A stretch of DNA of 64,000 bases, taken from contig OZ024742.1 of NCBI GenBank assembly GCA_964016885.1, positions 142,352,001 to 142,416,000 on the forward strand, given 5' to 3'. Shown here piece by piece: positions 12,226 to 15,681 of the stretch; positions within the stretch are counted from its first letter, which is position 1; the number at the start of each line of letters is the position of its first letter. The notes below the pieces were generated by a model. It worked only from the letters and a program-made list of their open reading frames with translations. It did not search any database and had not been told where the DNA came from. Source of the stretch: Eledone cirrhosa. Its lineage: Eukaryota. A program made the position numbers and the translations under genes.

Positions 12226-12742
12226 ATGTAAATATGTATGTATGTATACGTACATACATATATGTATACAGACGTACAGTAGTATGTATATATCGTTTAT
12301 CGTTCTCGGTATGCCCGGCCGACTAAACTCACTCGATATGCAAATTAGGCTGCTCAGCCGTTAATATGCATAAGGAAAGTATATACTTTCAGACGTTCAA
12401 CCATCTGGCAGGAAGGTATACGATGCTGACGATAGCTAATAAGCTTGCAACTAGTACATCGTTCCTGTGTCAGTGTTGAACAAAAAGGTGACGTGGTTGC
12501 CTAAACACTGTACGGCGTAATTCGGGCTGTTTGTTTGTTTACAAACGAACAAACCTAGCATTATAATAAATGTTCGGTAGGCCGATACGTGCATATATAT
12601 ATGTGTGCATGTATTTATATATATACATACTACTGTACGTCTGTATACATATATGTATGTACGTATACATACATACATATTTACATTTAAGTAAGTACCG
12701 TACTAAGAGTGAGAAATGAAATTTTGTTTCATTCTATTCCAT
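12226..12742 (+). mobile_element. Non-coding hammerhead-containing repeat unit, copy 1 (retrozyme candidate), with a 68-bp inverted segment at its 5' end
   Basis: Near-identical to 15236-15681 (offset 2939); 12226-12293 is the reverse complement of 12619-12686. Confidence 0.7.
12421..12461 (+). ncRNA. Type I hammerhead-like motif with variant core (GCAA in place of GAAA) and long bulged stem I
   Basis: cgatg-CTGACGA-t agct aata agct t-GCAA-ctag-TA-catcg; stem I extends through gcaggaa/ttcctgt and gttcaac/gttgaac. Confidence 0.65.
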
Positions 12743-14112
12743 ATATATATATATATATGTGTATATATATATATATGTATGTGTATATATATATATATGT
12801 ATGTGTAGATATATATATGTATGTATATATATATATATATATGTATGTATATATATGTATGTGTATATATGTATATATATATGTATATATATATCTATGT
12901 GTATATATATATATGTATGTGTATATATTTGTATGTGTCTATATATATATGTATGTATATATATATGTATGTGTATATATATATTTATATGTATGTATAT
13001 ATATAAATATGTATGTGTATATGTGTATGTATATATATGCATACACACACACATATATATATATATATATATATATATATATATATATATATATATATAT
13101 ATATATGTGTGTGTGTGTATGCGTATATATATATATATATGTATATGTATTTGTATATATATATCTATATATATATTTATATATATATATATGTGTGTGT
13201 ATGTATGTGTATATATATATATATATATATATATATATGTGTGTGTGTGTATATGTATATATATATATATATATATATCTGTGTATATGTATATATATAT
13301 ATATATATATATATATATATATATATGTGTGTGTGTGTGTGTGTGTGTGTGTGTGTGTGTGTGTGTGTGTGTGTGTGCATGTATGTATATATATACATAC
13401 TACTGTACGTCTGTATACATATATGTATGTACGTATACATATCCTAAACGGACGGTAGTCCGTTTAGTAATATTGTTGTGATCGTGTTTTCGTTGGCAAT
13501 CGTCTGTTTACGACAGTACAGCGCGGCTCTACTTTATTTAACTGAGATAAAACTTATATGAGCATGAACAGTAGATCATTACGCATTTTTTGGCTTAAAA
13601 ATATAGAAATTTGGTCCAGCGGGAAAAAGTTTATAATCAAAGTTTGCTGATAAATCTTGTGTTCAAGTGATGAGTAGTAAGCGTGACGCTAGGGGAGGTA
13701 ATCCAGAAATAACGCATTTTTTTCGGCGGAACTCTTGTGATTGTGATTACGTTAGTCAAATGTAGTCAAATCGCCGAATCCCCTCCTCCTAATTGACTAC
13801 GTCATTTCTGAACGGCCCTACTTGCGTCAGTGTGAAACATTACTTCACTTTTCACTGCTAAAATGCTTTTTAAATACTTCGTTAAAAATTTATGTTTATT
13901 ATCAAAGCTATTTTTTGTACCAATCTATCAATAGTTTGCGAAAATATAGGTAAACATGTGAGTTAAATTTTTTTTAATCGCATCGATCGCTTTGTCGCAC
14001 CGACTGTGACACTTTCTGACTGTCTGTCTGACTGACACCTTTGTCGGACCGATTCACTATGATCATTTAATTATTAGATAGTTGTTGCTTGCATTGCCTT
14101 AAAAAATAGTAG

Positions 14113-15173
14113 ACCAGATAGAAAAATGCGTACAGCAAAAAAAAGTAATATTGGTGGAATATAAACCTTTAAAAATACAGGACAAGAAACTAAAATAAAA
14201 CTTTAAAAGAATAGGACAAGAAACTAAGATAAAACTTTAAAAGAATAGGACAAGAAACTAAGATAAAACTTTAAAGAATTGGACAAGAAATAAAAAATGT
14301 TACAATAATATTAGTGGCAAAAGTTTTTTATTCGTTTCCTGTGCTATGCCCCAGTATCTTCTTGATTAGTGCATAATAATTGTCATGCTCTCATTGTGCG
14401 TTGCCCCTGAGCGGTTGGTTCTGGTTGGGGTTGGTTGGCTGAGCAGTTCTGCTCCGTCAGAATGACCATTGCAAGAAGAATTGGCCGATGCAGCTGCAGG
14501 TCTCCTCCAAGAATGCACTTCTGGTCCCGCAACACCAGACGAAGATGGAGAAGACGACCGGGACAAGATGTCGACTCTGACCACCGACTACGGCACCTCC
14601 CTCAACCACCGGTCCTCCCTCCCTCTGTCCCGTCATCCCTCCAGTCCTCCTGTTCCCCCTTCCTGTACCAGAAAGCTGTGGCACGCATTCATCTGGACTG
14701 CCGGACTTGAACTCAAGGACAAGATGCAGGGAGAAGATGGATGGGTTGGTCAAGATCAAGGATGAGCGGGACGACAAGACTGTCCGCTGCTGCTCAAGAT
14801 CTGTGCTCATGGGCCCATGGGTCCATTCACATTATGCATGACACATGAGGCGTGTCGCCGAATGATGAAATAGGGGTATGGTTATGGCCCAATTGGTATT
14901 CAAACCAGGATCACATGATCCCCCCGGTCTGACGACGACCTCTGAATGTGCAACCCAGAGCCTATGAATGTGGAACTCGATTTTTTACCAATAAAAATTT
15001 TGCCACTAATATTATTGTAACATTTTTTATTTCTTGTCCAATTCTTTAAAGTTTTATCTTAGTTTCTTATCCTATTCTTTTAAAGTTTTATCTTAGTTTC
15101 TTGTCCTGTATTTTTAAAGGTTTATATTCCAACAATATTACTTTTTTTTGCTGTACGCATTTTTCTATCTGGT
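14113..15173. repeat. Inverted repeat (14113-14332 / 14990-15173) with internal ~34-bp tandem units, enclosing a GC-richer 660-bp core
   Basis: accagatagaaaaatgcgtacagc... matches ...gctgtacgcatttttctatctggt; the left arm has one more ggacaagaaactaagataaaactttaaaagaata unit. Confidence 0.85.
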
Positions 15174-15176
15174 TTG

Positions 15177-15681
15177 CATTTAAGTAAGTACCGTACTAAG
15201 AGTGAGAAATGAAATTTTATTTCATTCTATTCCATTTATCGTTTTCGGTGTGCCCGGCCGACTAAACTCACTCGATATGCAAATTAGGCTGCTCAGCCGT
15301 TAATATGCATAAGGAAAGTATATACTTTCAGACGTTCAACCATCTGGCAGGAAGGTATACGATGCTGACGATAGCTAATAAGCTTGCAACTAGTACATCG
15401 TTCCTGTGTCAGTGTTGAACAAAAAGGTGACGTGGTTGCCTAAACACTGTACGGCGTAATTCGGGCTGTTTGTTTGTTTACAAACGAACAAACCTAGCAT
15501 TATAATAAATGTTCGGTAGGCCGATACGTGCATATATATATGTGTGCATGTATGTATATATATACATACTACTGTACGTCTGTATACATATATGTATGTA
15601 CGTATACATACATACATATTTACATTTAAGTAAGTACCGTACTAAGAGTGAGAAATGAAATTTTGTTTCATTCTATTCCAT
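15177..15681 (+). mobile_element. Hammerhead-containing repeat unit, copy 2: 446-bp period with 59-bp direct terminal redundancy
   Basis: catttaagtaagtaccgtactaagagtgagaaatgaaatttt(a/g)tttcattctattccat at 15177-15235 and 15623-15681. Confidence 0.75.
15360..15400 (+). ncRNA. Type I hammerhead-like motif (GCAA variant), copy 2
   Basis: Identical to 12421-12461. Confidence 0.65.

Follow-up and report, generated by a model that had tools for sequence, protein, structure and literature searches.

The window analyzed here, a 64,000-nt stretch of the Eledone cirrhosa genome (contig OZ024742.1, positions 142,352,001 to 142,416,000), contains two near-identical copies of a 446-nt non-coding unit that carries a type I hammerhead ribozyme fold. 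The unit is probably a copy, decayed and duplicated locally, from an abundant, non-autonomous family that depends on Penelope-like elements (PLEs) and whose hammerhead has a canonical core, that is, a non-long-terminal-repeat (non-LTR) retrozyme. This class describes the family best because its (TA)n end, its tail, and the inverted pieces at its 5' ends resemble those of PLEs.

Anatomy and hammerhead fold of the unit

Copy 1 (12296-12741) is 99.3% identical to copy 2 (15235-15680), with 3 differences in 446 bases, in agreement with the two near-identical copies described in the original prediction, which was made from the sequence alone. Copy 1 is exactly one monomer and starts at the point of the circle, the boundary between tail and core, where both copies end. 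Copy 2 together with its 5' tail amounts to a 1.14-mer: the 59-bp direct terminal repeat with a period of 446 that had been claimed for it was recovered with one mismatch (15177-15235 versus 15623-15681), and BLAST delimits it as 62 nt with 96.8% identity (15173-15234 versus 15619-15680). With a G+C content of 37% and a longest ATG-initiated open reading frame (ORF) of 49 amino acids on the plus strand and 75 on the minus strand of the 446-nt circle, the unit is short, non-coding, and low in G+C, as retrozymes are. Three features go beyond the original prediction, namely, an inverted unit piece that precedes copy 1, a third unit fragment, and the homology of the microsatellite tracts after the two copies, whose interrupting words follow the same order (see Table 1).

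The right arm of an inverted-repeat element (14113-14335/14987-15173) breaks off at the start of copy 2. In two of the public runs introduced below, X4 and X8, loose contig ends continue the arm beyond 15173 as the reverse complement of 14083-14112, and the unit of copy 2 has therefore cut into the inverted-repeat element. A target-site duplication (more than 4 bp when present) was not discernible for insertions that end in microsatellite and whose left target is truncated. The two tails of copy 2 differ at 2 of 62 bases, compared with 3 of 446 between the monomers, which would fit an insertion that preceded the duplication, as far as so few sites can tell.

Both copies hold the type I hammerhead as originally drawn, with stem I, its bulged extension, ACUAGU, a GUA site, and GCAA. 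In copy 2, the 6-bp stem I (15359-15364/15396-15401) is continued by a bulged extension of 3, 6, and 7 pairs out to 15334/15420; CUGACGA occupies 15365-15371, a U.U mismatch lies beneath a 4-bp stem II with loop AAUA, GCAA occupies 15386-15389 (with the C at 15387), and the palindromic ACUAGU forms helix III. Having GCAA in both copies, the window locus departs from the core consensus CUGANGA...GAAA...UH. The fold is nevertheless more than chance would produce. The 96-nt hammerhead region has a folding z score of -3.0 (2 of 200 shuffles were equally good) and the monomer one of -6.1 (0 of 100 shuffles), or -4.0 without its TA-rich hairpin (60 shuffles). A descriptor that tolerated one core mismatch and required at least 6 pairs in stem I and at least 4 in stem II had 0 matches in 20 of 20 Markov controls of window length; a looser one (stem I of at least 5) had 7 matches across the same 20 controls. 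With one core mismatch allowed, the descriptor found four sites in the window, which are the two unit copies plus a GAAA hammerhead and its mirror copy. The minimum-energy fold itself forms no helix III. The microRNA matches given by Rfam turned out to be microsatellite artefacts, and the U10.1.U11.1 mismatch, considered as a possible novelty, has precedents in the axolotl HHR_Amex2 (PMC7229834) and in PMC3088659.

The family core and its variation

Twenty public runs contain the unit or part of it. Contigs of four of them (X1, X4, X6, and X8) were aligned to positions 15130-15525 at 80% likeness, leaving out 15526-15680; the variants discussed here are those in 40 of 72 rows, drawn from contig assemblies, which lose rare variants and carry no phase. 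Matching contigs numbered 7,478 in X1, 7 in X4, 16 in X6, and 7 in X8, so that the unit shares with retrozymes a large number of genomic copies. The haplotypes of X4, X6, and X8 are rare in X1; these three runs have low depth, may hold trace DNA of related animals, and are counted as distinct haplotypes rather than as a host range. Of 13 runs with a small share of the unit, X8 is the one included in the alignment. The summed depth in X1 reached 0.4 to 2.1 million over the unit versus about 33,000 on the left flank, a measure of abundance and not of copy number, and 1,610 of the 7,478 X1 contigs were at least 99% alike, a share inflated by short contigs. Pattern scans for related loci gave 0 in metagenome contigs and 0 in viral contigs, and no RNA run is among the public runs listed as containing the unit.

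A search for further copies together with a tally of GAAA against GCAA had been proposed with the original prediction. Carried out on the contigs of the public runs, it revealed that other copies exist and that position 15387 reads A in all four runs: at 1,365,628.7 of 1,365,884.6 depth in X1 (99.98%) and at the entire depth in X4 (33.9 of 33.9), X6 (105.9 of 105.9), and X8 (14.6 of 14.6). Letters other than A thus make up at most 0.02% of the X1 depth and none in X4, X6, and X8. Judged by these contigs, the family core is GAAA. The family agrees with CUGANGA...GAAA...UH in four of four runs, and the only other core variation among the rows listed concerns the free position 7. Since GAAA holds in the family across the four runs, GCAA appears private to the window locus, where it represents a private change rather than a new ribozyme type; a few further GCAA copies are possible. 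The “variant-core” hammerhead of the original prediction can therefore not be upheld. That both window copies have GCAA is explained by duplication of one from the other or by a common source, and an assembly error is an unlikely origin, given that the change is present in two non-identical copies.

The change is probably inactivating. Replacing A by C at core position 13 (A13C) is expected to cripple hammerhead cleavage. A13 is counted in the consensus hammerhead core, and such mutants in repeats have been treated as cryptic (PMC3088659).

Variation in the family follows the fold. The 11 listed variable sites in 15334-15420 comprise 7 on the 19 free positions, 3 on the 56 paired positions, and 15387 itself (Fisher p 0.002 for free versus paired). 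Record 10 of X4 carries 14 differences, 14 of which were placed by matching depths; besides 15387, eight of them lie inside the fold, six unpaired and two turning A-U into G.U, a pattern with a chance of 0.0002-0.01, depending on the transition bias. When the circular fold is considered, in which 61% of positions are paired, 27 of the 40 rows are unpaired, 7 keep a pair, and 6 break one. In X6, both partners of one stem I pair have changed, with T at 15362 and G at 15398, which gives U.G. The core is invariant and the stems are spared across three distinct haplotype groups; helices II and III have no variation among these rows and hence no covariation. Of the stem covariation that the original prediction had called for, stem-sparing, pair-keeping variation was seen in the family, and the three helices, the open stem I, and this variation agree with a type I hammerhead, one stem I pair being possibly mismatched in many X1 copies. 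The changes that keep G.U pairs point to the plus strand as the likely RNA strand.

Templates, mechanism, and competing explanations

At the window locus there is one ribozyme per insertion, the two being 2,939 bp apart, and a 1.0-mer and a 1.14-mer do not provide two hammerheads one unit apart. In the family, head-to-tail continuity is seen piecewise. In diverged contigs (X1 records 1-2, X6 records 16-19), the tail leads on into the core; 54 contigs of X1 and 2 of X6 have loose ends before 15177 that correspond to the end of the hairpin, and loose ends behind 15517 (X1 and X6) enter the TA-rich hairpin, so that every junction of the 446-nt circle was seen, each in separate contigs. One X1 contig, a single case, joins 15513 back to 15232. 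Inversions at the 5' end recur: apart from copy 1, they are found in X8 record 25, where the tail is inverted directly before the core, and at the X1 joint 15178/15381. Since the insertions end 161 nt 5' of the cut site rather than at it, we infer that the copied template was a circular or multimeric RNA and not a linear monomer bounded by cleavage. Of the circle-forming retrozyme that was originally proposed, this leaves in place a multicopy, non-coding, hammerhead-bearing, terminally redundant unit with insertion marks of the PLE type. Circle formation at the window locus itself has to be given up: as there is one ribozyme per insertion, far from its neighbor, and as both cores are changed, the locus should not yield a 446-nt circle.

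The following cycle, which builds on the model for metazoan retrozymes (PMC7229834) and on the anatomy described for PLEs (PMC8557442), would account for these features. Intact multimeric copies elsewhere would be transcribed on the plus strand, and their hammerheads, probably as dimers via the palindromic helix III, would excise 446-nt monomers, which a host ligase would close into circles. A PLE reverse transcriptase (RT)/GIY-YIG protein would prime at a nicked (TA)n site and copy the circle or a multimer from a point about 160 nt 5' of the cut site over more than one full turn, which would generate the terminal repeat and, in some cases, an inversion at the 5' end. The window copy would later have suffered the A-to-C change at core position 13 and then been duplicated along with its microsatellite tract.

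Several observations weigh against this reading. The minus strand folds nearly as well as the plus strand (z score of -5.8 versus -6.0), and the GCAA copy of the window, when scored with Rfam Hammerhead_1, gave no match even at an E value of 10. For the effect of A13C on cleavage, no direct measurement was found in the literature searched. In X1, 63% of the depth reads T at 15362, and for the pairing position 15398 the sole variant listed is G (21%), such that many X1 copies may be mismatched in stem I, a picture that a further variant row could change. Two hammerheads did not occur in any one contig of X1, X4, X6, and X8 on 15130-15525, and multimers enter the cycle as a supposition. Among nine predicted Xenopus retrozyme dimers, one cleaved in vitro (Li, Clavereau and Pollet 2026, bioRxiv 10.64898/2026.07.22.740005). 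Lastly, the unit has no sequence in common with the coding PLEs of the window outside microsatellite.

These PLEs are represented by RT/GIY-YIG frames at 17300-18443, 20804-22976, and 29899-31200, plus mirrors. Pfam gave a weak RT match in one of the eight PLE-type pieces scanned, and the best of 28 homologues of the protein encoded by 29902-31200 is from Octopus vulgaris (64% identity), which would point to an octopod host. The window thus combines the unit with RT/GIY-YIG remnants that have GAAA hammerheads, the coexistence with autonomous PLEs that is expected of retrozymes. No co-oriented RT/GIY-YIG ORF adjoins the unit within the window, and because the window PLEs share no sequence with it outside microsatellite, the originally proposed mobilization by neighboring PLE RTs stays conjectural, and we name no helper.

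Alternatively, the unit might be the tandemly repeated pseudo-LTR (pLTR) of a family of coding PLEs with no ORF at the window locus, in which case it would move within autonomous elements and its short copies would be truncations. PLE insertions are often 5' truncated, and their pLTRs are described with hammerheads, tails, and inversions (PMC8557442); moreover, pLTR homology was reported for 24 of 57 Xenopus retrozyme families matched to Repbase, 21 of 22 matched elements being PLEs (bioRxiv 10.64898/2026.07.22.740005). However, the tail returns straight into the core with an ORF-free period of 446 nt, both in the window and in X1 and X6 contigs, the two hammerheads associated with coding PLEs in the window lie about 40-50 nt before the (TA)n end versus 285 nt in the unit, and the unit has the long, bulged stem I typical of retrozymes. 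We consider this alternative unlikely.

A somewhat smaller chance is left to a dispersed or tandem repeat that spread at the DNA level, by unequal crossing-over and local duplication, with the hammerhead as an old functionless relic. The common microsatellite and the common private change give the window copies the look of a local duplication, large inverted duplications are present in the window, and stem I may be mismatched in a large part of the X1 copies. A relic would, however, hardly have kept an invariant core and spared stems in three distinct haplotype groups; copy 2, moreover, cuts into another element and bears a terminal repeat, and many X1 contigs are at least 99% alike, even if short contigs inflate that figure. 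That GCAA is a functional natural core variant defining a small active subfamily is very improbable: it occurs in both copies, active natural core variants exist (PMC3088659), and contigs lose rare variants, but the two GCAA copies are not independent, no core change compensates for the C, and letters other than A are next to absent at 15387.

Going beyond the non-LTR retrozyme favored here, it is tempting to speculate that an abundant cephalopod retrozyme forms an RNA circle equipped with a microsatellite-like TA/TG hairpin of its own and with a constant site of priming (where tail and core meet, with AT microhomology), which would steer PLE reverse transcription into (TA)n and so both target and seed the microsatellites of the genome, possibly under an internal promoter that includes the octamer, comparable to newt satellite 2; we would give such a scheme little credence at present. 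Regarding its last element, the original prediction had correctly located ATGCAAAT in both copies. In the window, this octamer occurs 5 times compared with 5.48 expected, two of the five being the duplicated unit copies, and any stretch of 446 nt has a chance of about 3% of containing one. The octamer has no listed variants, nor has any of 15275-15304, and it forms one arm of a predicted hairpin. A word at 15427-15449 resembles, we presume, the proximal sequence element (PSE) of vertebrate U1 genes; we set it aside, given that variants of X4 and X6 (15428, 15429) convert G.U to Watson-Crick pairs in a hairpin, so that RNA structure fits better. Newt satellite 2 has a promoter of the small nuclear RNA (snRNA) type (PMC2220036, citing Coats et al. 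1994), and snRNA-type promoters are described as requiring a PSE (PMC9138887). For the unit, the octamer as a putative snRNA-type promoter element is unsupported by these data.

Genomic surroundings and relation to known systems

The features of the unit and its immediate vicinity are collected in Table 1.

Table 1. Coordinates of the 446-nt unit, its fragments, and adjoining tracts in the window
Feature	Position	Strand	Comment
Unit piece in inverted orientation before copy 1 (3' arm of TA-rich hairpin plus beginning of tail)	12223-12293	-	98.6% identical to 15558-15628 in reverse complement
Copy 1, one 446-nt monomer	12296-12741	+	99.3% to 15235-15680
Octamer ATGCAAAT in copy 1	12338-12345	+	
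Type I hammerhead fold of copy 1	12395-12481	+	Stem I with extension; core position 13 is C; cleavage predicted after 12456
(TA/TG)n tract after copy 1	12742-13371		First part homologous to that following copy 2, with interrupting words in the same order
Third unit fragment (part of the hairpin)	13372-13441	+	100% to 15541-15610
5' copy of the terminal repeat of copy 2 (tail)	15174-15235	+	Starts at the cut-off right arm of the inverted-repeat element
Copy 2, monomer	15235-15680	+	
Predicted hairpin, octamer in its 5' arm	15276-15311	+	7 of 8 octamer bases paired
Octamer ATGCAAAT in copy 2	15277-15284	+	
Type I hammerhead of copy 2	15334-15420	+	Predicted cut after 15395
Long TA-rich hairpin within the unit	15524-15618	+	Purine-pyrimidine alternating; both ends also in other family copies
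3' copy of the terminal repeat	15623-15681	+	Runs into (TA)n
(TA/TG)n tract after copy 2	15681-16566		

Further hammerheads accompany the PLEs of the window. A type I hammerhead with a canonical core and a long stem II lies at 25126-25176 (+) and again at 36674-36724 (-), about 40 nt before (TA)n; the PLE frames at 20804-22976 lie about 2.1 kb upstream. A second canonical hammerhead, at 28698-28742 (+) with its mirror near 33262-33306 (-), scored 31.7 bits with Rfam Hammerhead_1 (gathering score, 34); its segment has microsatellite on both flanks and lies downstream of a GIY-YIG remnant. These mirrored positions belong to an inverted duplication of about 10 kb (20117-30856 versus 31205-41733) in three blocks of 95-99.7% identity, centered on the PLE RT/GIY-YIG frame near 31000. 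Closer to the unit, 16566-19140 is a PLE truncated at its 5' end that carries its own 3' end a second time in inverted orientation (16566-17058 versus 18586-19090) and is located between (TA)n tracts.

Upstream of copy 1, an open LINE-type RT frame of 544 amino acids (10293-11927; Pfam RVT_1, E value of 1e-28) is followed by a hammerhead-like remnant at 11977-12013, which lies between this frame and a (TA)n tract and retains CTG, a perfect 5-bp hairpin, and GAAAC, with the first core partly missing. The inverted-repeat element at 14083-15173, with arms of about 220 bp and a G+C-rich interior, is also present in other runs; the one frame tested had no Pfam match. At 6960-9778, a remnant (about 7070-7990) that we take to be mariner-like from its motifs adjoins a 1.8-kb inverted repeat with microsatellite arms and center. 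A short interspersed repeat, which resembles a common octopus SINE (short interspersed nuclear element), is present in more than 10 copies (4364-4773, 20331-20528, 41322-41519, 45540-45719, 55089-55189, 57044-59302, 60908-61127, and 63320-63467).

Taken as a retrozyme, the unit is a real element of an ordinary kind, probably in a new lineage, and it would add a likely octopod member with a high copy number to the animal retrozymes, with no new ribozyme chemistry. No cephalopod retrozyme was found in the literature searched, with subscription papers and repeat libraries outside the search. A giant squid paper only counts 235 Rfam hammerheads, and a recent repeat annotation of O. vulgaris is silent on ribozymes in its accessible text, which does not use the terms ribozyme, hammerhead, or retrozyme (PMC13282606). 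Insertions with a tail and an inversion whose ends do not coincide with the cut site lend direct anatomical support to the copying of circular or multimeric RNA by PLEs, a step that is still hypothetical for retrozymes.

The non-LTR retrozymes of metazoans (Cervera and de la Pena 2020, PMC7229834), with units of 220-245 bp in coral, 350-390 bp in mussel, and 330/350 bp in axolotl, resemble the unit in being non-coding and a few hundred bases long, with less than 50% G+C, a type I hammerhead, a strongly self-paired predicted circle, a high copy number, and PLEs in the genome. In addition, helix III of the unit (one pair plus a palindromic tetraloop) is like that of axolotl HHR_Amex1, and helix II shares its basal U.U with HHR_Amex2 (PMC7229834). 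In contrast to the retrozymes described there, the unit is 446 nt long, at the top of their range of 150-450 bp, was seen as 1.0- and 1.14-mers only, ends in (TA)n with inverted pieces, contains an internal TA-rich hairpin, has a damaged core at the window locus, and is known from DNA alone. The non-LTR retrozymes of the Xenopus preprint (bioRxiv 10.64898/2026.07.22.740005), whose units measure 51-972 bp, are likewise dispersed as monomers and short multimers in PLE-bearing genomes. That preprint, in whose accessible text no mollusc is among the groups sampled, defines as “active” two consecutive units with complete hammerheads, which the window locus does not offer.

Newt satellite 2 is similar in being a short repeat with a type I hammerhead and a weak palindromic helix III, and the unit also contains the octamer; unlike in satellite 2, the octamer occurs at chance frequency and within a predicted hairpin. 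Finally, the unit shares with the pLTRs of endonuclease-containing (EN+) PLEs such as Neptune, Hydra, and Penelope/Poseidon (Craig et al. 2021, PMC8557442) a partial tandem arrangement, a terminal extension, an inverted 5'-truncated piece, (TA)n targets, and a hammerhead. It differs from them, as they are described there, in a period that contains no ORF and in a terminal repeat of 59 bp versus their tail of 30-40 bp.

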